42,263 bases of DNA from Candidatus Vogelbacteria bacterium RIFOXYB1_FULL_42_16 (GTDB lineage Bacteria > Patescibacteriota > Minisyncoccia > Phycocordibacterales > XYD1-FULL-46-19). The notes under the pieces were generated by a model that worked only from the letters and a program-made list of their open reading frames with translations, was not told where the DNA came from and searched no databases. The first letter of the stretch is position 1. Each line of letters opens with the position of its first letter. A program made the translations under genes and the position numbers. Below, one piece after another: positions 7,025 through 32,840 of this stretch. Location: NCBI GenBank assembly GCA_001823055.1, contig MHTH01000006.1, positions 1-42,263 on the forward strand. The letters are read 5' to 3'.

Positions 7025-8716
7025 TCAATATATTTCTTTCAGGTATTCCGGTTCATAAACCGCCAACCAATCAAACATCTGTCTCATGACAAAAGTCGCG
7101 CCAATCGTATTGTGACGAGAACCCTTTTCCATCACCACGACAAAAGCGTAATGGGGCTTGGCATAAGGGAAAAAACCGGTCACCCAAGAATTGACCCGCT
7201 CTCGCGTTTCGCCCAATTCCGCCGTGCCGGTTTTGGCACCGACTTCCACTGCCGGCGTATTGAGACCCTTGGCCGTTCCTTCACGAACCGACAAACGCAT
7301 GCCTTCGCGAACGACTCGCAAATGTTCGGGATCAAGCGGTAAGATTTGACCGGGAGTAAATAAACCATCGGGACTTTTTAAAATCGTCGGGGTAATCATC
7401 CGACCGCCATTGGCAATAGCCGTAATTCCACGCAAAATTTGGAGAGGGGTTACCAAGACACCATATTGACCGATGGCCGTGTGATAAGTATTACCAACTC
7501 GCCACGGTTCACCGTCAAAATTTTTTGCTTTCCACTCCGGATTAGGAATAACTCCGGTTTCTTCCCCCGGTAAATTGATGCCAGTCTTTAAACTCAAGCC
7601 AAACAGTTTGGCATATTTTTCGATATTCATGATCCCGATCCCCTTTTGACTGCCAAAACCGCCACCAATTTGATAAAAATAGACATCGGAAGAAACGGCA
7701 ATCGCCCAACGCATGTCGACCGGCCCGTGAGCTTTCCAATCTTTGAAAATCGTCGGTTTAGACGGATCATAAGGATTAGGCACCACCAACTGACCGGTAC
7801 TGACAATCTGTTTTTTAGTATCGATAACATTTTGTTCCAAAGCGCCGACCGCCACAAACGGTTTAAAAACCGAACCGGGGGTATAGAGACCAGAGATAGT
7901 GCGATTAAGTAGGGGGAAATTTTTATTATTAAAATAATTGGAAATTTTTTCTTTATCTTTACCTTGAGACAAAATGTTTGGATTGTATTCCGGATAACTG
8001 ACCATCGCGATAATTTCACCGGTGTTGATATTCATGATCACTCCACTACCACCGCGAAAATCATATTGGGTGGCCACACTGCGCACGGTTTGATAAAATT
8101 TTTCCTGCACTTTGGCGTCAATCGCTAAGATCAATTCTTGACCGCTTTTAGGCTGACGAATAATATGATCGGAAATAATTCCGCCAATCGCGTTGGTTTC
8201 TTCGATCTTTAAACCTTTTTCACCGCCCAAAACCTGATTATAAAAAGCTTCCACCCCATCTCGCCCGATCAATTGTTTCGGATCCAAAAGTTGATTAGTG
8301 GATAATTCTTCTTCGCTCGGATAACCGACATAACCTAAAACATGAGCGAGACCTTCCTGATCGGCATAAAGACGATTGGGATTATTCCAAGCCAACATTT
8401 TTTTGTGACGATCATAGATGATGCCTCGTTCAGCATAAATCGGTGTATGTCTCAAAGTATTGTTGACCGATCGATCGGCATAAACCGTCCCCTGCGCCAC
8501 TTGCAGATTGAAAACTTGACCGATAAAAATCAGACCAATCAAACCAAAAAATAAACCGGAAAAAAACAAGATCTTTTTACTGATCGGCTTTTCTATTTGA
8601 CCTTCAAACTGTTGTTTATCAAAAGAAGGCAGATTGCTGTCGTCCAAAAAAATCTCGTCCGGATCGAGATCGCGGGACAGATTGCGACGACTTAAAAAAT
8701 GATGGCGTTTGAACAT
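7025..8716 (-). CDS. mrdA: Penicillin-binding protein 2 (elongasome transpeptidase)
   Basis: PGSVFKP, SSDVYFY, KTGTAE motifs; downstream of mreBC. The likely start ATG at 8716 overlaps the upstream stop codon. Confidence 0.88.
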   Translation of the reverse strand: MFKRHHFLSRRNLSRDLDPDEIFLDDSNLPSFDKQQFEGQIEKPISKKILFFSGLFFGLIGLIFIGQVFNLQVAQGTVYADRSVNNTLRHTPIYAERGIIYDRHKKMLAWNNPNRLYADQEGLAHVLGYVGYPSEEELSTNQLLDPKQLIGRDGVEAFYNQVLGGEKGLKIEETNAIGGIISDHIIRQPKSGQELILAIDAKVQEKFYQTVRSVATQYDFRGGSGVIMNINTGEIIAMVSYPEYNPNILSQGKDKEKISNYFNNKNFPLLNRTISGLYTPGSVFKPFVAVGALEQNVIDTKKQIVSTGQLVVPNPYDPSKPTIFKDWKAHGPVDMRWAIAVSSDVYFYQIGGGFGSQKGIGIMNIEKYAKLFGLSLKTGINLPGEETGVIPNPEWKAKNFDGEPWRVGNTYHTAIGQYGVLVTPLQILRGITAIANGGRMITPTILKSPDGLFTPGQILPLDPEHLRVVREGMRLSVREGTAKGLNTPAVEVGAKTGTAELGETRERVNSWVTGFFPYAKPHYAFVVVMEKGSRHNTIGATFVMRQMFDWLAVYEPEYLKEIY

Positions 8717-8979: not shown

Positions 8980-9778
8980 AAATTTCCACCCATTTTAGTT
9001 CATAGAGATTAATCGGTAGACGAAACAGAACACGAATGTAGGGATCGGAAGATTTAGCCTCGATGGCGCCGACACTACCGAGAAGCAAATTACGATAAGA
9101 ATTGGCAAAAACCGAATCGCCGACAGCGATCTCGGTGCCTCGAGGCAGAGATAAAGAAAAATTACCACTACCCAGACCCTTGGCAATGGCTGGGATTGAT
9201 TTGGGACCAATCGCCACAATCACCTGATCGCCAAAAGAAGTGAACAATTTGATCTTAGCGCTAGAGCGATAAATTTCCGCTACTCGTCCCAACAAAACTT
9301 GCCCACCACCGGTCGTAACCAAATCGCCAACTTTGATCAAACGACTCTGATCATCACCCAAAGACACGATCAAAATATCGTGAGGGGTGATAATCGGTCG
9401 AGCAGTGACCGCCAACAAAAGCGGTTTTTCGGACCGACTGTTCAAACCGACGATTTTCTTTAACTCCAAATTTTCCTGACTAATAGTTTGATTGGATTGC
9501 CAGATATTTTTTAATCGAAGATTTTCCAGTTTTAATTTTTGATTTTCGGCCACTAAACTTTTTTTGAAACGAACAAATTGTTTTAAATCGGTCGCCAAAT
9601 CAACCGTCACTTTACCCACCGCTAAAAAAGGCCGGCTGACTAAAGCAACCGGTCCATAAAACCAAGTCGATAATTTGGCTCCCCAGAAAACAATTCCTGA
9701 CAAAAACAAAATCAGAATAACCAAACTCCAACCAAAACGCCGAGGCGATCGACGTTCATCAGCGCGGCGGTAATTCAT
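8969..9778 (-). CDS. mreC: Rod shape-determining protein MreC
   Basis: TM, coiled coil (LVAENQKLKLEN), beta-rich C-terminus; follows mreB. The start could lie anywhere from 9778 to 9790. Confidence 0.88.
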   Translation of the reverse strand: MNYRRADERRSPRRFGWSLVILILFLSGIVFWGAKLSTWFYGPVALVSRPFLAVGKVTVDLATDLKQFVRFKKSLVAENQKLKLENLRLKNIWQSNQTISQENLELKKIVGLNSRSEKPLLLAVTARPIITPHDILIVSLGDDQSRLIKVGDLVTTGGGQVLLGRVAEIYRSSAKIKLFTSFGDQVIVAIGPKSIPAIAKGLGSGNFSLSLPRGTEIAVGDSVFANSYRNLLLGSVGAIEAKSSDPYIRVLFRLPINLYELKWVEIYEN

Positions 9779-10811
9779 CTTCATTATCAATTAAAATATC
9801 CCGATAACGTTCGACATCTTCTAAAATCACGCCGGCCCCCCGCACCACCGCCGTAATTGGATCATCTACAATATGAATAGGAATTTCTAGTTCTTTTTCC
9901 AACAATTCTTTTAAGCCTCGCATCCGCGCACCACCGCCCACCACCACAATACCCCGCAACATAATATCGGAAATCACTTCCGGCGGAGTCGATTCCAATA
10001 CTTCTTTGACGGCATCGACAAAAATCGCGATCGAAGAAGCAATAGCTTCGCGAATATCACTATCGGTAATCACCACTTCGCGTGGCAGACCGGTCACCAG
10101 ATCTCGCCCCCGAATAGTCGCCTCGAGCGAATCGGAAAATTTATAGACCGAACCGATAGTGACTTTGACATCTTCGGCAGTTTTTTCACCCAATAAAATT
10201 TTAAACTCATCGCGAACATAAGCGATAATATCTTGATTCAATTTTTCACCGGCCACATGCAAATTTTTTGATTTGACGATTCCACCCAGAGAAATCACAG
10301 CAATATCAGTCGTGCCCCCGCCAATATCAATGATCATACTGCCGACCGGATCATAAATCGGCAAACGAATACCGAGTGAGGCCGCCATTGGCTCTTCGAT
10401 AATATGTACTTCGCGAGCGCCAGCATTTTTGGCGGCATCGCGCACCGCTCGGCGTTCGACATTGGTAATATCCGATGGCACACCGATCACCAACCGCGGT
10501 CGAAAAAATTTTCTAGTCGATCTTTCCAACGCTCGACGAATAAAATAAGCCAGCATTTCTTCGGCCACTTCAAAATTGGAGACGACGCCGTTGACCAAAG
10601 GTTTGATAGCGCTGATGTGAGCTGGGGTCCGGCCGATCATTTGGCTAGCGTCGTTACCCACCGCTACCACCCGACCGGTTTTTTGGTTGATCGCGACAAT
10701 CGACGGTTCGACCGCTACAATACCCTGACCGCGAACATAAACAAGGGTCGTGGCGGTACCGAGATCAATCCCGATATCGCTGGAAAACATTTTGTACAGC
10801 TTCTCCATCAT
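9759..10811 (-). CDS. mreB: Rod shape-determining protein MreB (copy 1)
   Basis: IGIDLGTATT, IEEPMAA, IDIGGGTTD; ATG at 10811 overlaps the proS stop (ATGA). Confidence 0.95.
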   Translation of the reverse strand: MMEKLYKMFSSDIGIDLGTATTLVYVRGQGIVAVEPSIVAINQKTGRVVAVGNDASQMIGRTPAHISAIKPLVNGVVSNFEVAEEMLAYFIRRALERSTRKFFRPRLVIGVPSDITNVERRAVRDAAKNAGAREVHIIEEPMAASLGIRLPIYDPVGSMIIDIGGGTTDIAVISLGGIVKSKNLHVAGEKLNQDIIAYVRDEFKILLGEKTAEDVKVTIGSVYKFSDSLEATIRGRDLVTGLPREVVITDSDIREAIASSIAIFVDAVKEVLESTPPEVISDIMLRGIVVVGGGARMRGLKELLEKELEIPIHIVDDPITAVVRGAGVILEDVERYRDILIDNEDELPPR

Positions 10812-14568: not shown

Positions 14569-15291
14569 ATGACAAATTACAAAAATCTCCTTAGACAGCT
14601 TGGCTTTAGTGCCTTGGCTGAAAATATCTATTTTACCTTAATCAGAAAAGGGTCTTGTTCGATTGCCGAGCTAGCTCAATTTAATGGCAAATTCCGGCCA
14701 GCAATCTATAGAGCGTTACCTGAACTTTTATCAGCCAATCTGATTAGCAAGATAATGAAAGGTAAAAGAATAATTTATAAAGCCGAATCACCCGTGGCTA
14801 TTTCGACCTTAATTAAAAAACAAACTAAAGATATCGAGGAAGTATTGCCAGAGCTCGTTAAATCTTTTCAGCAAAAAGATCGGAAACCAAAAATTTCTTT
14901 TTATGAAGGCAAGGAAGGTATTGCGACCGTTTATGAACAATTGATCTCCTCAACCAAAAAGGGTGGGGCGATCTGGCGCTATGAATCAGCCGAGGATTAC
15001 AAAAAGAATAAACGATATTATCCATCTCTTTATTGGAAGCGGGCCGGAGCTACTGGCGACATTGATAAATATGTCATCACCAATCTAAAAACTCATCAAA
15101 AAAGGCATAAAAATCTTAATCGTTTATCAAAAGCAGTAAATTTACCCTTTGAAGACAATATTACAGAGCTAATTGGTGATGGGAAGGTAATTTTTATTGA
15201 TTATGACACTGAAACCGCGATTGTGATTGAAAATGAACGCTTTGCCAATTTTCAGAAAACTATTTTTAAAATGTTTTTTGAAAAAATTTAG
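14569..15291 (+). CDS. TrmB-family HTH transcriptional regulator
   Basis: LRQLGFS...IYFTL...SIAELA...RPAIYRALPEL winged HTH; PKISFYEGKEGI linker typical of TrmB-like proteins. Confidence 0.8.
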   Translation: MTNYKNLLRQLGFSALAENIYFTLIRKGSCSIAELAQFNGKFRPAIYRALPELLSANLISKIMKGKRIIYKAESPVAISTLIKKQTKDIEEVLPELVKSFQQKDRKPKISFYEGKEGIATVYEQLISSTKKGGAIWRYESAEDYKKNKRYYPSLYWKRAGATGDIDKYVITNLKTHQKRHKNLNRLSKAVNLPFEDNITELIGDGKVIFIDYDTETAIVIENERFANFQKTIFKMFFEKI

Positions 15292-18976: not shown

Positions 18977-20992
18977 TCATATGATGATGTCCTGATCAAG
19001 GACGCCCTTGGGCATAGCAAATGGTGCTGATTGATGAATTTTATGATAGGAACCATCGGGCATCTTTTCTTCGACGGTCAAATAATAAGTGCCGGGACGA
19101 ACCAAGACATACAGTCGGCCCAACTGATCGGTACTGGCCGACTTGATCGGCTGATCTATACCCGGCAAATATAGACGTACCAGAGAAAAAGCTAACGGCT
19201 CGCCGTTAGCGCGACGAATCGAAATAATTTTATGCTTGATAATTCGAACTTTCTGATAAACCAAAATACCGACATAGGCAATAAGCAAAGAAAAATCGAG
19301 CACCGAAGGCGCTACCACCACCTTAAACAGCGATAGGGCAAAACCGGTATAAAAAACGCCGGCCAAAACTCGACGACGAGTCGCTTCTTTTCTGGTGTAA
19401 ATTTGGAAAAAATTAATTTTGGTTTTGGCAAATTCGTTCCAATCAAAACCTATCGGATCCAGAGGTACATTCAATCTGATGATTTGATTTCCATCGTGCG
19501 CTAAAGGTGTGCCAAAATAAAGATTGTCATAAAGCTCGTCCTGCGTCTTGCCTTTTAAAGTGGTTGACGGAAAACGATAATTAGTTTTACCAACTTTGAT
19601 ATAGTAGACATCCTTGGGCAACAAAAAACCAAAACGACCATCAATATCAGTAATAGCGCTGGTGACTTCTTTACCCGTCCCATTTTCCACTGTCACATAA
19701 GCCGGATCGATCGGTTGTTTTGTCACCGCATCAAAAACCGTGCCCCATTCTGGCCGTTTACGTCTGATACCAAGCCATGATAAAAATGAATAGATTAGAC
19801 GCATTAAGAGTAAGTAAAGATCATAAACGGAATGGACATTGGTCGTCATTAAAATAATTTGCGATAAACCGGCGCCCAGGCCCATCATGGTCACAAGCGG
19901 ATCAATATATTTTTCCAAAGCGTCGATCAGGCCGGAAGTTCGTAAAAAAGAGACGCCGGCCACTTGCAAACTGCCAGTGATTTTTTTAACGGTTTGATCT
20001 TGATAATTGATGACATAGATCGTGACCGGAAAAACTCCGTTACGCCAAAAAGGTGATAGGTTGGCCAAATATCTACCCTCGCCATCATCACGCATAATAA
20101 AAGAAAAAGAGCGAGTAACATTTTTTGGATCGGAAATAACTACTCCGATCGTTTTTAGCACTGTCGGTAAAGAATTTTTATCAATCTCAATCATTAAATT
20201 TTTAGTTCCCTGAATTTTGACTTTGGCCCCAGCGCTAAAATATTTAGTCAATTCACCAATCTGGCGCAGAATAAAATCACTAATCGTGACAGTCGATTTA
20301 GCGCCAGGTAAAAAAGCAAATGGGTCACTGCCACAATTACCATCAGGACAGATTTCTCCTTCCTTTAAACCGATAGCGCTAGCCACCGCCCCAGAAGAAT
20401 ATTCCCCGGCCTGATTTTTAACGAAAGCGGTGTAATAATAACGCACCCTAAATTCAACCGCCGGATCAACCACGTTTTCAGCCGAACCTTCATAAACGAC
20501 CGCACCATCTTCCGGATTGGCGGGAATACCAAAAGTCGAACGGACAATCCGAACCGCTTCAAAACCCTCAAAATTGGGGTTGGACCAAGTTAAATAGATT
20601 TTTTGTTGATTAATATTAAATTCGGCTTGAAAATTGGAAACATTTGGCACGGTCTCACGATAAAGACAAGGCAAATCTTCACCATAATTGAAAGCTTGCC
20701 GATCTTCACATTTGGTCGAATAGACACAAGCCTCTTCCGCACCGTAATTGGTCGCTTTAGGATCATCACAAGTCAAACCACCACCCCCCCCTCCATAGGT
20801 ACAAGGCAAAGCCCCACCATAATTGTTGGCCAACGGATCGGTACAAGTCGTTGCTGTCGTCGCTGTAACACTCAAGCTGACATTGACCGCATCGGTAGCC
20901 GACCAAACAAAACCACCAATCAGCAATAAAGCAAGAACAACTGGTAAGATAAAAAAATAATTTGATTTTTTAAACATCTTTTTTAAAGACAT
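18977..20992 (-). CDS. Multidomain surface/membrane protein (Cys repeats, FN3-like, carboxypeptidase-regulatory-like domains)
   Basis: N-terminal signal/TM, three C-x-D-x-x-A-x-N-Y...C-x-Y repeats, LTWSNP...YYYTAF FN3-like segment, internal TMs, TDIDGRF and TDQLGRL beta-sandwich motifs. Confidence 0.65.
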   Translation of the reverse strand: MSLKKMFKKSNYFFILPVVLALLLIGGFVWSATDAVNVSLSVTATTATTCTDPLANNYGGALPCTYGGGGGGLTCDDPKATNYGAEEACVYSTKCEDRQAFNYGEDLPCLYRETVPNVSNFQAEFNINQQKIYLTWSNPNFEGFEAVRIVRSTFGIPANPEDGAVVYEGSAENVVDPAVEFRVRYYYTAFVKNQAGEYSSGAVASAIGLKEGEICPDGNCGSDPFAFLPGAKSTVTISDFILRQIGELTKYFSAGAKVKIQGTKNLMIEIDKNSLPTVLKTIGVVISDPKNVTRSFSFIMRDDGEGRYLANLSPFWRNGVFPVTIYVINYQDQTVKKITGSLQVAGVSFLRTSGLIDALEKYIDPLVTMMGLGAGLSQIILMTTNVHSVYDLYLLLMRLIYSFLSWLGIRRKRPEWGTVFDAVTKQPIDPAYVTVENGTGKEVTSAITDIDGRFGFLLPKDVYYIKVGKTNYRFPSTTLKGKTQDELYDNLYFGTPLAHDGNQIIRLNVPLDPIGFDWNEFAKTKINFFQIYTRKEATRRRVLAGVFYTGFALSLFKVVVAPSVLDFSLLIAYVGILVYQKVRIIKHKIISIRRANGEPLAFSLVRLYLPGIDQPIKSASTDQLGRLYVLVRPGTYYLTVEEKMPDGSYHKIHQSAPFAMPKGVLDQDIII

Positions 20993-20997
20993 AGTTT

Positions 20998-21753
20998 TTA
21001 TAGAGCGATAGCAATAATACTAACGACCGCTTGATAAGTGCCTCCGCTCAAACCACTACTGGCACCGGCTTGGGCACGCAATTTGATTGTCGTTGCGGTG
21101 CCACTGGGATTGTTATTGGAATTTCGCAAACTAATAGTTTTGGCCGAAGTCGAAAAATTCAACCAACATCTGTCGGTAGTCTCCAAAGCGCCAGTACCAC
21201 AAGTCGTGCCGTTATCCAAAAAAGAAGTCGCCACATCCGAACCTTCAGCTGTATAGCCGAAATAAGCTTGGTTGGTCGGCACACTCCAAGAAAAATCCGG
21301 CGTCCCCGCGACCGTCACTGGCAAATCGGTAAAACTTCCACCGGCTGAACGCAAAGCCGGACTGGCATCAGCCGAAAGTGTTAAAGAATAACCAGCCGGA
21401 CTATTGGTAGTTATCGTCCAAACCGCAGTCCCATCAGAAGTCCCGCCACCACTAGCATCAATCGCTGGACTAAGCGTCACGTCACTAGGAGAAGAGACGG
21501 TAAGATAAACATCTTCGCTCATCGCTTGATAACCGGCATGGAGATTGTAAGCGTCAGACGAGGTACCGGTGCCGATTTCACCCAAAGTATCTTCCATTTT
21601 ATAATTGGTCGAAGAAGACATTGAGCCACCAAAATTAACACTATCGGCTTGGAGACGATAATTGGGACTGCTGGCCACATAAGCCCCGACCGGTCCAGCC
21701 ATCAAGAGACAGAAAACAATTAAAGAAAAATTTCGAGTAATAAAATTAAACAT
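20998..21753 (-). CDS. Secreted S/T/G-rich beta protein, WxL-like/fimbrial-like
   Basis: Signal peptide; TTNSPAGYSLTLSA; terminal GTYQAVVSIIA strand; one Cys pair. Confidence 0.55.
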   Translation of the reverse strand: MFNFITRNFSLIVFCLLMAGPVGAYVASSPNYRLQADSVNFGGSMSSSTNYKMEDTLGEIGTGTSSDAYNLHAGYQAMSEDVYLTVSSPSDVTLSPAIDASGGGTSDGTAVWTITTNSPAGYSLTLSADASPALRSAGGSFTDLPVTVAGTPDFSWSVPTNQAYFGYTAEGSDVATSFLDNGTTCGTGALETTDRCWLNFSTSAKTISLRNSNNNPSGTATTIKLRAQAGASSGLSGGTYQAVVSIIAIAL

Positions 21754-28675: not shown

Positions 28676-28909
28676 TTATAACACCAGATTGTCTGGTAAG
28701 GAAAAAATCTTGCTCGGACTATGATGCCCGCTAACAATTCTGATTTGGCCATCTTTCAGTCCCAATTCATGAGCCACGAGTTTTATAATACCCTGATTGG
28801 CCAAATTTCTCTCGGCTGGCGCCTGCACCCACACTCGCCAAGTGTCAGTCGAGATTTTTTCTATTTTATCTTCTTTGGCTTCGGGCACCGCCCGAATTTT
28901 TAAATACAC
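28676..28909 (-). CDS. DUF167 (YggU) family protein
   Basis: VPEAKED, V.APAERNLAN, IVSGHHSPSK; GTG start. Confidence 0.85.
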   Translation of the reverse strand: MYLKIRAVPEAKEDKIEKISTDTWRVWVQAPAERNLANQGIIKLVAHELGLKDGQIRIVSGHHSPSKIFSLPDNLVL

Positions 28910-28950
28910 GATATCAAAAAATTAATAATTAAAAAATTAGAGGCTTTTGA

Positions 28951-29763
28951 TTACAACGGGCTCTTGATATTTTTCAGCGCCGGATTGGTCACATGAGTGT
29001 AAATCTGCGTCGTACGGATATTGGCGTGACCCAAGAGTTCCTGAACGAAACGAATATCAGTGCCATTTTCCAATAAATGCGTAGCGAATGAATGCCGTAA
29101 ACTATGAAAAGTGGCTTCTTTATTGACGCTAGACAGTTTCAAAGCTCTTTCAAAAACCATTTGCGCTGTCCGTTCGGTTAGCTTGCCACCTCGTTCGCTC
29201 TCAAAAACGAAATCATCACCCGATTTGCCGGCAATTAAATTTCTCAAATTATTGACTAGCTTGTCCGGCACCAAAGTTATTCGGTCTTTCTTGCCCTTAG
29301 CTTCTTTAAGATGGATAGTAAGTTCTTCTAAATTCAAGTCCCTGACTTTCAAATTGATGGCTTCGCTTACTCGCAAACCGGCGCCGTAAGACAATGTTAA
29401 TAGTAAAAGGTGTTTGGCATTTTTAACTGTTGCAAGTAAATCCTGTATTTCCTGACGACTCAAGACAACTGGTAACGATTTATTGCGTTTGGCAAATCTG
29501 ATATTAAATGTCTCCGATGATCTGATTACATCATGATAAAAATATTTGATAGCATTGAGATAGAGGTTAATGGTTTGCGATGAGTAATCCTTGTCTTGTT
29601 TTGATAATAAATATTCTCTAATATTGCCTTGATCCAATTTGTCTAAATTTGATTGTTTATAATTAAAATAATCCTCCAAGCATGATAAATAAGCATCGAT
29701 TGTCTTAGGGCTGTAATTGCGTATTTTTAGCTCCGTTTTTACTCGTTCTAATAATTGTTGCAT
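28951..29763 (-). CDS. Tyrosine recombinase (short integron-integrase-like / Xer-like)
   Basis: RNYSPKTIDAY N-terminal SAM-like domain; catalytic R (GLRVSE), K (KGKKDR), HxxR (HSLRH), H (LGH), Y (TTQIYTHV); 270 aa. Confidence 0.93.
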   Translation of the reverse strand: MQQLLERVKTELKIRNYSPKTIDAYLSCLEDYFNYKQSNLDKLDQGNIREYLLSKQDKDYSSQTINLYLNAIKYFYHDVIRSSETFNIRFAKRNKSLPVVLSRQEIQDLLATVKNAKHLLLLTLSYGAGLRVSEAINLKVRDLNLEELTIHLKEAKGKKDRITLVPDKLVNNLRNLIAGKSGDDFVFESERGGKLTERTAQMVFERALKLSSVNKEATFHSLRHSFATHLLENGTDIRFVQELLGHANIRTTQIYTHVTNPALKNIKSPL

Positions 29764-29787
29764 GTATTTAGGGTTTATTGCTATAAT
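29758..29787 (+). promoter_or_regulatory. Pc-like cassette promoter
   Basis: TTGCAT (29758-29763)-N18-TATAAT (29782-29787) with a TGn extension, pointing into the cassette array. Confidence 0.6.
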
Positions 29788-29836
29788 TAGGTCATGGACA
29801 ATTTGTCTGCCATTCGTCTTTCATACGTCTATTAGT

Positions 29837-29845
29837 ATTATATCA
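29837..29845 (-). promoter_or_regulatory. Pint-like promoter of the recombinase
   Basis: TGATATAAT (extended -10) on the minus strand, about 75 nt upstream of the recombinase ATG. Confidence 0.55.
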
Positions 29846-29854
29846 CAAAACTAT

Positions 29855-29875
29855 TCGCATAGAAACTAGTTGGAC
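29855..29875 (+). other. attI-like primary recombination site
   Basis: TCGCATA-GAAACTA-GTTGGAC: the GTTRRRY core is complementary to GTCCAAC at the end of cassette 1; TCGCATA matches the right arm of attC2; no upstream hairpin arm. Confidence 0.7.
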
Positions 29876-29940
29876 GAAATAGCAAAAACCTCTTTACTTT
29901 TTATTAAAATTTTGACAGTTTATTATTAATCATACAAAAT

Positions 29941-30363
29941 ATGAAGACACCAGACCAAATGGTACCTTATCTAAAGGAGAAAAAAATGGACATCGAGAAA
30001 AAAGAGTTGCACCAGCCAGTCCTTCATATTTTAAAGGAAACGGCAGAAAAGTTTCGCTCTTTAGACCAGGAAGCAGATGTAGCCCTTCAAAGCAAGCGTG
30101 ACACTGCAACCTATAAGCAAAAACTTGAAGAACGAGCGAAACTTTTAATCAATCTTCCAAATCTTTTGTCGGGTAAATTGGAAGACCTTGATTCAGAAGT
30201 TAAGCAAAGAATTGTGCGTGATATTGAATGGTTTGCAACAAGTGCAAATGAAGCGTTGGAGAATAATAATGGTTTTGCGCTTGGAGTACTGCTCACGCAC
30301 CAAGGTAGTAAAAATACCGACAAAAACGATTTGGAAGAATTGATTGCCTTGCTTGAAAAATAA
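29941..30363 (+). CDS. Cassette 1 ORF: helical hypothetical protein
   Basis: Single ORF filling the cassette 29869-30597; charged helical composition; no recognised family. Confidence 0.75.
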   Translation: MKTPDQMVPYLKEKKMDIEKKELHQPVLHILKETAEKFRSLDQEADVALQSKRDTATYKQKLEERAKLLINLPNLLSGKLEDLDSEVKQRIVRDIEWFATSANEALENNNGFALGVLLTHQGSKNTDKNDLEELIALLEK

Positions 30364-30408
30364 ACTGTCAAAATTTCTTTTTTAATCGGAGTCGGCTTTT
30401 GCTACATC

Positions 30409-30604
30409 GTCCAACACGGGATAAGCGGTTCAGGATTGGCACTCATTTTATAAAATAATGTGTGTGCCAATCCTTCTCCCAAATTCGTTTCCCTTTTATT
30501 TCAAATACATCAATGATTAGTGTGTTTAAAATAATTGAGAAGTGTATATCAAGTTTAACAAATTAAATCGGGAAACGAACTTCGCTTATCCCGATACGTT
30601 ATAT
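30409..30604 (+). other. attC-like site 1 (196 nt)
   Basis: GTCCAAC-A-CGGGATAAGCG ... CGCTTATCCCG-ATAC-GTTATAT, with two internal hairpins. Confidence 0.8.
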
Positions 30605-30679
30605 GAAATAATGAAAAATTCTTTTTGCCCTACTGGGCAAAATTAATCGGGACAAATTTATTTTTAAAATTAAAATATT

Positions 30680-31345
30680 ATGAAAAAAATCGCAACTATC
30701 GTTTTAGTTATTGTGCTTTTAATCGTAGCTGGCACATTATCATTTTTAATATTTAACAAGCAAAAACCAAATAACCAAATTTCTTTAACTGGTATTGATT
30801 CATCACAAATCAGGCCGGAAATAAAAATTTATCTTGATGAATTATACGACAGCGAAATTACATCAATAGAACACACAACCGATAGTATAGAGGAAAGCAC
30901 AAGAAGGTTTCCTGATAATCCTAAAATTTTTGAAGCTGGCAGATTTAAAGTTGTTCTTAATAATGACGGCGATAAAAAAGTAATGATTTTTCAAACCGAA
31001 GAAAAAGTAGGCCATATCGCGCCAGTTATTCCCGGTAAAACTGATGTTGGCGGCTATGTTGAAATTCAAAGAAATCCAGAAAGTGACAATTCCGAGGATA
31101 TAGCGCATACGACCCAAAGTATTGAAAATCAAGATAAATTAAACAATATTGCTGATTTAAAACTAAATGAATTTGAACTGGATTATTTAATTAGAATATT
31201 GTACAAAAAGTTTGAAAAACCATTGACTGATGAGCAGGCGCAAAATTTAAATGAAATTAAAGATTATGCCCTGGCGATTAAATTTAGTGGCAGGGATGGC
31301 ATAACCCAATATCATAATAGTTTGGTTAATGAATTAAAAAAATAA
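30680..31345 (+). CDS. Cassette 2 ORF: N-terminally anchored exported protein
   Basis: MKK + hydrophobic helix then an acidic soluble domain; fills cassette 30598-31488. Confidence 0.75.
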   Translation: MKKIATIVLVIVLLIVAGTLSFLIFNKQKPNNQISLTGIDSSQIRPEIKIYLDELYDSEITSIEHTTDSIEESTRRFPDNPKIFEAGRFKVVLNNDGDKKVMIFQTEEKVGHIAPVIPGKTDVGGYVEIQRNPESDNSEDIAHTTQSIENQDKLNNIADLKLNEFELDYLIRILYKKFEKPLTDEQAQNLNEIKDYALAIKFSGRDGITQYHNSLVNELKK

Positions 31346-31399
31346 ATTTGTCCCGATGAATAATTCGCTAATCGCGAATTAAGAATTTTTCATTACATC

Positions 31400-31495
31400 A
31401 TATAACAGCGTGTATGCGGTTCGTGCTTGGCTCCGCCAAATACTCGCCCATATCCGCCTAAATCGGCGGACATCGCATACACGCGAACGTTAGGC
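31400..31495 (+). other. attC-like site 2 (96 nt)
   Basis: ATATAAC-A-GCGTGTATGCG ... CGCATACACGC-GAAC-GTTAGGC. Confidence 0.82.
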
Positions 31496-31528
31496 GAAAT
31501 TTAAATCCTCACTTAACCCATTCAATTT

Positions 31529-31834
31529 ATGAAAAAATATTTACTAATAGCATTTATCTTTTCCGCATTAGTATTGTTGATAGTTTTCGTATTTTTTAAG
31601 AAGGACTCTTTATCAAAAAAATCTGCCACGCCACTAAATAAAGAAATTCTTATTGAGTCATGTCACCAAACGGGTGGTACTTGGAAAGAAGAATCTAATC
31701 CTTGCGAACCTACTTGCGACTATCAACGTAAAAAATTAAAAGGTGAGAAGCTCACTTGTATTGCTCTGGTAGTGCCTAATTGCGAATGCGAAAAAGATAA
31801 ATGCTGGAATGGATCAAGTTGTGAGCCACTTTAA
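31529..31834 (+). CDS. Cassette 3 ORF: membrane-anchored eight-cysteine protein
   Basis: MKK + TM, then C..GGTW...C...C...C...C.C...CW...C (8 Cys). Confidence 0.78.
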   Translation: MKKYLLIAFIFSALVLLIVFVFFKKDSLSKKSATPLNKEILIESCHQTGGTWKEESNPCEPTCDYQRKKLKGEKLTCIALVVPNCECEKDKCWNGSSCEPL

Positions 31835-31849
31835 CCGGATTTAAACATC

Positions 31850-31927
31850 GCCTAACACGGCATATACGGTTTCATTACATTACACCCATATTGCTATTGC
31901 AACATCGTATATGCCGAAACGTTAACT
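31850..31927 (+). other. attC-like site 3 (78 nt)
   Basis: GCCTAAC-A-CGGCATATACG ... CGTATATGCCG-AAAC-GTTAACT. Confidence 0.8.
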
Positions 31928-31931
31928 CAAA

Positions 31932-31970
31932 CAACAAGCTTGGGAGAAAGATATTCTCCCAAGCTTGTTG
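31932..31970. terminator. 17-bp perfect hairpin between the array and the convergent SIMPL gene
   Basis: CAACAAGCTTGGGAGAA-AGATA-TTCTCCCAAGCTTGTTG. Confidence 0.65.
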
Positions 31971-31988
31971 AGACAATTTGAGAGGTTT

Positions 31989-32840
31989 CTACTTTAGAGC
32001 GTAGCGCACATTGACCGTCACCTCGATTTCTTGCGAACCAGCCTCGATAGCTGGCGCTGATTCAGCCACCATAGCATCACCGCCCATGCCTAGACCAAGG
32101 CTCTTGGCATACATCGGAATCGGTGAACCATATTCGTCAATAGCCAGAATTCTTCCTAATGATATGCCACTTTCTTTAGCCAGACGTTTGGCCTCAATTT
32201 TAGCTTTGGCAATCGCTTCAGCTTTGGCCAAGAGACGCGCGCCGGCCGGATCGTCCAATTCAAAACGCAATTGCGAAACATTATTCGCACCGTTAGTCAC
32301 CACGCCGGACAACAAAGTGCCGAGATTTTTTTGTTCAAAATCACGCACAGTTACCTCGACAGTATTGTTAAAACTATAACCGACAATATCAGCCGGTGGA
32401 CAAGGTTGCGGTTCGGCCAACCCAAAAGTCGGGGCACCAGCAGAACCACCGCTTGTGGCCAGACCAATACTAACGACCCCGCGGTTACCACAAGCATAAC
32501 TTTGATAGCGAGGTTCCATCGAATAACCAGTGGTTTTAATGTCTTCTTTTGGTACACCCTGCTTTTTTAGAAAAGCTACGATCTTATTTGATCGATCGTC
32601 GTTATCTTTTTTCGCTTTGGCAATATCTTTTCCACCCTCGGTTTTAATCGAATAAGAAAAGCGAGCGACATCCGGCTTGGCAATGACTTTACCAATACCA
32701 GTAATAGTGATCGCCGGACTATTCAAGGCCGTGGACTTGGCGTAGGCATCGGCATAAATAAAAACTCCCACCGCTCCAACGATCAAGGCCAGAGCCTTGA
32801 TGCCAGTGACAATCATTTTAATTTTTTCTTCTTTGTTCAT
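31989..32840 (-). CDS. SIMPL (DUF541) domain protein
   Basis: TM, ITITGIGKVIAKPDVA, GANNVSQLRFEL, AIAKAKIEAKRLA, IEAGSQEIEVTVNVRY. Confidence 0.9.
   Translation of the reverse strand: MNKEEKIKMIVTGIKALALIVGAVGVFIYADAYAKSTALNSPAITITGIGKVIAKPDVARFSYSIKTEGGKDIAKAKKDNDDRSNKIVAFLKKQGVPKEDIKTTGYSMEPRYQSYACGNRGVVSIGLATSGGSAGAPTFGLAEPQPCPPADIVGYSFNNTVEVTVRDFEQKNLGTLLSGVVTNGANNVSQLRFELDDPAGARLLAKAEAIAKAKIEAKRLAKESGISLGRILAIDEYGSPIPMYAKSLGLGMGGDAMVAESAPAIEAGSQEIEVTVNVRYALK

Follow-up and report, generated by a model that had tools for sequence, protein, structure and literature searches.

The stretch of DNA considered here, referred to as the window, is the whole of contig MHTH01000006.1 (contig C6; 42,263 nucleotides, nt) of Candidatus Vogelbacteria bacterium RIFOXYB1_FULL_42_16, a tiny groundwater bacterium with a 611-kb genome assembled in 23 contigs. 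Judged by its sequence, the window contains a three-cassette integron-like array adjoining the gene for a 270-amino acid (aa) Xer-type tyrosine recombinase. The two ends of each cassette are complementary to each other, and the stems that they form are real, non-chance, specific, and family-wide. We favour, at a probability of roughly 0.55, the explanation that integration has split an enlarged recombination hairpin, of which these stems form the halves, in an array run by the short Xer-type recombinase. This explanation draws on what was observed of the anatomy of the locus, its recurrence within a family, the covariation of the stems, the restriction of the pairing to cognate ends, and the fold energies.

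The Cassettes and Their Complementary Ends

The array occupies the plus strand, where three short open reading frames (ORFs; 140, 221, and 101 aa) are each followed by an imperfect palindrome, of 196, 96, and 78 nt, respectively. Each palindrome reads R'' (RYYYAAC), L'', loop, L', and R' (GTTRRRY), which is the layout of integrons. The features of the locus are as follows, with the length and percentage match of each stem in parentheses and with scores from the covariance model R1 described below.

28951..29763, minus strand: tyrosine recombinase, 270 aa, Xer-type, without the IntI-specific insertion; divergent from the array; assigned with Pfam and NCBIfam
29855..29880, plus strand: attI-like junction, consisting of an L'-like arm, GAAAC, a 2-nt spacer, G|TTGGAC, and GAAAT; the motif recurs in related loci
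29869..30415, plus strand: cassette 1, from R' to R''; outer stem 29869-29890/30394-30415 (22 nt, 86%); inner stem 29907-29927/30356-30376 (21 nt, 95%); ORF 29941-30363
30409..30604, plus strand: attC1, 196 nt; R'' GTCCAAC, L'', branched loop, L', and R' GTTATAT; found by the scanner and by model R1 (86.8 bits)
30598..31406, plus strand: cassette 2; outer stem 30598-30623/31381-31406 (26 nt, 92%); inner stem 30642-30671/31332-31361 (30 nt, 90%); ORF 30680-31345
30623-30642 and 31361-31381: two small local hairpins of cassette 2, between its outer and inner stems
31400..31495, plus strand: attC2, 96 nt; 91.5 bits with model R1
31489..31856, plus strand: cassette 3; outer stem 31489-31508/31837-31856 (20 nt, 90%); inner stem 31549-31569/31785-31805 (21 nt, 95%), within ORF 31529-31834
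31850..31927, plus strand: attC3, 78 nt, which closes the array; R' GTTAACT abuts the chromosome; 77.9 bits with model R1
31932..31970, minus strand: 17-bp perfect hairpin followed by a T run, terminator-like, for a neighbouring gene of the SIMPL family; outside the array

Inverted pairing of the cassette ends had been reported in a preliminary description of this sequence, and all of the stems named there were recovered by a repeat search. With cassette 1, the outer (17/19) and inner (18/18) pairings fall inside the longer stems listed above, as does the inner pairing of cassette 2 (20/20); the outer stems of cassettes 2 (24/26) and 3 (18/20) were returned at the same extents. The inner stem of cassette 3 is a sixth, which had not been listed earlier. 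The outer stems start at the G of GTTRRRY and finish at the C of RYYYAAC, and the delimitation of the elements as cassettes bounded at G|TT holds. It was also correctly recognized that the stop codons of ORF1 (30361-30363) and ORF2 (31343-31345) lie in the inner 3' arms, and that the sole mismatch of all three outer stems sets GAAAT in the 5' arm against ACATC in the 3' arm, beside the R box. This 2-nt mismatch had been regarded as a loop specific to these cassettes; instead, it belongs to a motif of the putative recombinase arm that is conserved throughout the family.

The small hairpins that flank cassette 2 are terminator-like, that at 30623-30642 on the minus strand and that at 31361-31381 on the plus strand; they are mirror images, and each is followed by the same T-rich arm of the outer stem. 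Terminator T runs as the general cause of the complementarity were ruled out, most outer stems not being runs of A or T, and a transposon with terminal inverted repeats was ruled out by the variation of the stem sequences between cassettes. The ORFs of the window cassettes have no significant family in Pfam, NCBIfam, or PADLOC, the sole match being a sub-threshold one of ORF2 in NCBIfam. Motif scans of the host genome yielded just the three sites of the window and no further array.

Specificity of the End Pairing

End complementarity is present in other arrays of the family. Past nt 12, the sequence differs from cassette to cassette, yet the ends are complementary. A score of at least 7 beyond nt 12 was obtained with 18 of 39 distinct attC-to-attC intervals, the ends of which are cognate, versus 5 of 1478 non-cognate end pairs, and the R box is cognate at a minimum of 6 of its 7 positions in 28/39 intervals. 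For first cassettes, the best partner was searched upstream of the first attC; such a stem occurs in 20 of 34 loci, its partner being located at the attI-like junction motif.

As a control, ten plasmid stretches with class 1 integrons were fetched and eight were used (L121-L124, L225-L228), cassette ends being assigned from the annotated genes. None of 18 distinct cassettes scored at least 7 beyond nt 12 (maximum 5.5), and the comparison with classical integrons called for in the preliminary description thus sets the present cassettes apart. The ends of six of the 18 (catB3, GES-24, aadA2, aadB, aac(6')-Il, and VIM-1) are perfectly complementary over 11-13 nt, and so reach 4-6 nt past the 7-nt R box. 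A 12-bp R arm therefore seems to be common to this family and classical integrons, and the long stalk seems not to be.

A second class of 3' flank was seen within the family, in which an insert or a local hairpin replaces the long-range stem (L008 and L104_6175; also L002, L013, L107, and L113). With L008, a 62-nt insert (reverse complement, just before R'' at 14697) splits the trailer, the 3' flank of the cassette, from R'', which accounts for the missing extension there. Mini-cassettes without an ORF were also encountered. Those of 82-83 nt are found in L010 (reverse complement, 8197-8279, 9142-9224, and 10370-10452) and L106 (5852-5934), and their 5' end folds directly onto an R''-like copy; the three repeats in one array each precede a degenerate attC that reads CTT instead of GTT. 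Another, of 149 nt, is present in L019 from 14075 onward.

The attC Family and Its Conserved Arm

Model R1 was built from 19 aligned attC sites and, in a search, gave 88 sites in 40 loci, and also matches in 12 of the 151 genomes searched (G000 and 150 relatives). ACATC stands before R'' in 48/88 sites, the commonest variant being ACAGC, and GAAAT follows R' in 35/78, with GCAAT, AAAAT, and others as variants. Inside attC, the 19-site alignment has ACATC or ACTTC in front of L'; therefore, both arms of the duplex read alike toward the center, as arms of about 12 bp. The GAAAT/ACATC pair looks like the outer five positions of such a recombinase arm. In all 20 internal cassettes with the extension, position 11 is an A facing C on the coding strand, equivalent to a G.T wobble on the other strand, and position 10 is A.A in 15 of them.

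AAC and GTT are paired in 19/19 aligned sites. When the sites are aligned in array form, 97.3% of the L-stem cells are paired, with double changes at 8 of 10 pairs, versus just 57.9% of the cells of the non-cognate R arm. The segment separating the R duplex from the L duplex is asymmetric, 1-2 nt lying opposite 4-5 nt, and may or may not act as extrahelical bases do. All attC sites of the family contain a conserved inner box, TC(A/T)CCCA(A/T)ATT, between two variable sub-hairpins (30470-30490, 31445-31455, and 31883-31893 in the window), and the site is therefore branched and not a simple hairpin. The loops of classical attC sites are not known to show such conservation.

The motif TCG(T/C)ATA(A/G)AAAC(G/T)A followed by GTTRRRY GAAAT occurs in the window at 29855-29880 and at the first cassettes of about 20 related loci. 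This conserved first-cassette junction is taken to be attI; it resembles the L'-spacer-R' half of attC in double-stranded form.

Three lines of evidence point to an integron-like crossover, at the G|TT of R': the module shared by loci L142 and G207 (below) goes with the downstream attC; attI has the likeness to half of attC just noted; and, more weakly since it is drawn from contigs only, homology breaks at 31919 in a contig of run X12. In that contig, a different last attC is followed by window sequence again from 31919, two bases 5' of the GTT of R'. A crossover at the R''-L'' half was ruled out by the anatomy of attI, the shared modules, and the X12 breakpoint.

Positions 28900-32600 of the window were compared in this way with runs X7, X9, X11, and X12, as contigs only, without starts, ends, or circle junctions. 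No joint of an excised or deleted cassette was seen in the contigs of the four runs, which carry no circle junctions, and the single joint listed, from 31422 to 31470 within attC2, comes from one contig with a depth of 3. Strains differ in the array: the contigs of X12 span the recombinase and cassette 1 and leave cassettes 2-3 uncovered, which is no proof of their absence. Low-depth contigs bear the same stem arms, or a trailer like that of G207, in other contexts.

A Leader-Trailer Module Around Unrelated ORFs

The leader of each cassette was aligned to the reverse complement of its own trailer, cassette by cassette. Most cassettes proved to be two-block: loops or small hairpins lie between the outer stem and an inner one of 13-30 nt. 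Three modules are related, those of cassette 2 of the window (809 nt, 221 aa), L142 (973 nt, with an ORF of 294 aa as called by our own ORF finder), and G207 (463 nt, 106 aa). They share a leader of ~63-91 nt (84-91% identity) and a trailer of ~64-67 nt (81-84%), and the sequences between leader and trailer have no similarity by blastn, tblastx, or blastp. Cassette 2 of the window and L142 are alike until the start codon is reached, and again from the stop codon onward. For L142 and G207, the attC downstream is common as well, at 77% identity, and that upstream is not; the attC core of cassette 2 differs.

The inner stem is perfect in all three modules despite several substitutions and one indel, and the two sides of the small trailer hairpin change together. 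These stems were read from the rows of a MAFFT alignment, one of which is offset by one column, and the column-wise count of covariation is too low. Among 51 cassettes compared, every one of the 16 similar pairs is alike only in its leaders or trailers, and the stems are kept even within coding sequence. The stems are maintained through compensatory changes.

A DNA search of 401 genomes with the leader of cassette 2 returned one genuine extra copy, that of G207; the matches in 46 other genomes, short and A+T-rich with E values of 1e-3 to 1e-2, were taken as noise. Larger cassettes with unrelated cargo (L002, L003, L008, L019, L104, L154, and L164) also have in common an element of ~75-115 nt, at about nt 40-150 of the leader and about 20-130 nt from the end of the trailer. 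It has a purine-rich, Shine-Dalgarno-like stretch in the leader and the complement of this stretch in the trailer.

Predicted Folds and Strand Preference

Folds were calculated with DNA energy parameters for the circle form, composed of trailer, attC, and the cassette's own leader, and for the array form, in which the leader is that of the next cassette. With cassette 1, values of -67.1 and -72.3 kcal/mol (top and bottom strand) were predicted for the circle and -51.5 and -51.9 kcal/mol for the array form; those for cassette 2 were -67.2 and -73.6 kcal/mol and -31.2 and -35.7 kcal/mol, respectively. The circle folds of both cassettes are a single continuous rod, from the inner stem through the L box. 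Extended to 24 cassettes of the family, which answers the check by in silico folding that had been proposed earlier, the calculation favoured the circle over the array form in 21 (means of -40.8 versus -29.6 kcal/mol, bottom strand); for 22 of the 24 circle forms, it favoured the bottom strand over the top.

When the whole array was folded as single-stranded DNA, the ends of each cassette paired across 368-809 nt; the outer helices of the bottom strand are continuous (21, 25, and 19 bp) and those of the top strand are broken. The pairing is therefore not limited to the excised circle. The preliminary description had proposed that the paired ends run on into the attC stem only in the circle. 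Continuity was found in the in silico circle, where the pairing stabilizes the attC stem, and the restriction to the circle was not upheld, given that the single-stranded array pairs too. A bias toward integration, which had been suggested on this basis, is unsupported as stated: the ends also pair within the array, and a bias toward excision is thus equally possible.

The Recombinase

Pfam assigned the recombinase to Phage_integrase and SAM_4. Its best family is NF040815 of NCBIfam (XerA / integron integrase), named "tyrosine recombinase/integron integrase" by NCBI, to which it is a marginal match, scoring 224.6 bits (cut-off, 220). With the integron-integrase model TIGR02249, the score was 210 bits, under the cut-off of 265, and the alignment ran through model positions 1-177 and 236-313; nothing corresponds to positions 178-235, and the IntI-specific insertion (the I2 helix near patch III) is therefore absent. 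Relatives with 50-86% identity were found in many Patescibacteria (candidate phyla radiation) genomes assembled from metagenomes and in metagenome contigs, and they likewise match across ~810 nt only. The recombinase gene adjoins the array in 9 of 12 related genome loci with at least 1.5 kb of upstream sequence. With Xer/dif dimer resolution of the XerA type, the enzyme shares the family-model match; the single short dif site of that system, without arrays of hairpin cassettes, is not what is found here.

A second tyrosine recombinase is encoded on contig C7 of G000 (20333-21016, in a 352-aa open frame) and may be the ordinary Xer enzyme of the genome. Among loci L001-L032 and L125-L171, many of the contigs with this recombinase stop within 1 kb upstream of it, as would fit assembly breaks at variable arrays.

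Models for the Function of the Stems

The proposed process would proceed as follows. Each cassette starts at R' (G|TTRRRY) and ends with R'' (RYYYAAC) followed by the remainder of its own attC, and strand exchange at G|TT would place the leader and trailer of one cassette on either side of its ORF. In single-stranded DNA, leader and trailer would pair, both in the free circle and, spanning the cassette, inside the array. This pairing would restore a fully matched R box and extend into a cassette-specific stalk (outer 19-30 nt and inner 13-30 nt) reaching the start and stop of the ORF. The fixed A.C of GAAAT/ACATC on the coding strand is a G.T wobble on the bottom strand, and the bottom strand is therefore predicted to fold better. 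The stalk would serve to hold a weak, A+T-rich R arm closed for a recombinase lacking the I2 helix of IntI and, in the single-stranded array, it may make both crossover points of a cassette meet at a single junction. The module is accordingly modelled as a long split hairpin with its crossover in mid-stem, which probably acts as single-stranded DNA with the bottom strand favoured.

Several observations weigh against this explanation. The extension is absent from 21/39 internal and 14/34 first cassettes, about half, and some of those without it bear a small local hairpin or the 62-nt insert before R''. The control of 18 class 1 cassettes is small, represents a single integron class, and includes no chromosomal integron; four of its automatic end assignments are doubtful, and one gene yielded no pair. 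The circle of cassette 3 is no more stable than its array form, the value for the latter being inflated by the neighbouring terminator hairpin. The family sequences are related, and the p-values of Wilcoxon tests on them thus overstate significance. Isolated mismatches within the stems favour the bottom strand only weakly (7 A.C versus 2 G.T, p = 0.18). Finally, no recombination was observed, and the action of the enzyme on single-stranded DNA or on these sites is putative.

A more far-reaching form of the proposal, which we regard as possible and tentative, is that the locus is a natural integron without I2. In bacteria of the candidate phyla radiation, its 270-aa recombinase would act on cassette arrays whose modules are split hairpins of ~150-300 nt with a mid-stem crossover, and the stalk would take over the role that the I2 helix and extrahelical bases have in classical integrons. 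The single-stranded array would regain perfect R arms across each cassette and thereby align its crossover points in a pre-formed excision synapse, and the reuse of modules around unrelated ORFs would mark them as the template of cassette formation, a tangible approach to how cassettes originate.

That the pairing serves the transcript is unlikely. Leader and trailer could pair in the RNA and loop the cistron, so as to protect the ends of the mRNA, insulate the cassettes, or gate translation, and the stalk does enclose the ORF, beginning shortly before the start codon and closing at the stop. The Shine-Dalgarno-like purine stretch of several larger cassettes is paired, in the inner stem, with complementary trailer sequence; both ends of cassette 2 bear terminator-like hairpins followed by T runs; and covariation alone fits DNA and RNA alike. 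However, it is the sense strand that carries the A.C mismatch at position 11 in 20/20 cassettes, has broken outer helices, and is the less stable in 22/24, and the outer stem is anchored on the crossover base of the DNA. Transcripts from the promoter-like hexamers that cassettes 1 and 2 have in their inner 5' arms would, moreover, miss the arm; these hexamers are consensus matches only, and a promoter scan gave 5 sites versus 8.9 expected, with no enrichment over shuffles, the positions of two being suggestive.

We likewise consider it improbable that the stems are a scar without function, in which the trailer was copied from the leader as a templated reverse complement, or an ORF was inserted at the tip of an ORF-less hairpin, and the complementarity has since been decaying. 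Leader and trailer are collinear for up to ~150 nt with loops of near equal size (17 versus 17 nt in cassette 1, 22 versus 23 nt in cassette 2), there are mini-cassettes of 82-83 nt without any ORF, and a passage of PMC5371416 calls cassette formation largely unknown. Homologous stalks around unrelated ORFs lend some support to the earlier suggestion of a record of how cassettes are built. Decay, however, is difficult to reconcile with the compensatory changes and paired indel that keep the inner stem perfect in three diverged copies, or with the retention of stems within coding sequence; the conserved ACATC/GAAAT mismatch shows ongoing selection at the ends, and the bottom-strand bias would be left unexplained. 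Such an origin is compatible with a recombination hairpin split by integration and competes with it only as a claim of no present function.

It is very improbable that the cassette ends are inverted recombinase sites in double-stranded DNA, comparable to dif modules and requiring no folding: the recombinase does score best as XerA-type, and the left half of each attC has two 11-nt arms around 6 nt, which we take to be an Xer-like layout, but the junctions do not resemble 28-bp sites, being 78-196 nt long and imperfectly palindromic, with loops that vary and an L stem that strongly covaries, and neither the cassette-specific extension past the arms nor the strand asymmetry would have a role in such a site.

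Relationship to Known Systems

The resemblance to integrons is extensive. A divergent tyrosine recombinase stands beside the array, followed by an attI-like junction and same-oriented cassettes, each with a short ORF and then an R''-L''...L'-R' imperfect palindrome; AAC/GTT is invariant, the L stem covaries, the loop varies in length, the bottom strand is predicted to fold better, and each cassette opens with six bases that complement its own R''. In the chromosomal integrons of the Vibrio type, near-identical attC repeats surround unrelated ORFs. The present arrays similarly combine a conserved module with unrelated ORFs, L142 and G207 sharing leader, trailer, and attC; unlike in Vibrio, the module reaches the 5' side of the ORF as well, bracketing it, and is self-complementary.

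Further differences from integrons lie in the recombinase, which lacks the IntI-defining insertion, and in the sites, the arms of which carry a conserved extra 5 nt and the attC of which has a conserved inner box. Cognate end pairing amounts to 19-30 nt plus an inner stem, unlike in class 1 cassettes, of which 0/18 pass nt 12. For integron arrays, the part of PMC5371416 on this subject states that the variable 4 bp of R' need not complement R''.

A precedent for an I2-less enzyme acting on folded DNA is provided by the CTX phage, with which XerCD, lacking an I2 helix, acts on a site that arises only through folding of the single-stranded DNA genome into a long imperfect hairpin, and replication completes the exchange of one strand. 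That system differs in integrating a phage genome into dif, with no cassette array, attI, or cassette-closing stems. The dif modules of Acinetobacter plasmids, as outlined in a portion of PMC7399989, also have genes between inverted Xer-type sites; these are short, double-stranded, alternating 28-bp XerC/XerD sites, in contrast to the hairpins of 78-196 nt and the cassette-specific ends found here.

A literature search, with the IntI/attC lists in the supplements of PMC9668308 and PMC4889954 lying outside it, gave no account of I2-less integron-like arrays in Patescibacteria or of cassette-end pairing beyond the R box. In a section of PMC9668308, archaeal IntIs are described as having the IntI-specific additional domain, which is treated as defining, and a section of PMC7790495 attributes to acquisition of the I2 helix the movement of IntI toward single-strand recombination. 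The main interest of the present family would be the combination of an I2-less recombinase with a reusable stalk module that brackets the ORF on both sides. With its attC-like hairpins, attI, and cognate-ended cassettes, it may represent a natural counter-example or a precursor. If the stalk is functional, it would be a second way to build a structure-specific site and, if the module is copied during cassette formation, comparison of stalks with their cargo would make cassette genesis testable. In bacteria with such small genomes, programs that require the IntI domain would miss these arrays, or list them as lacking an integrase.

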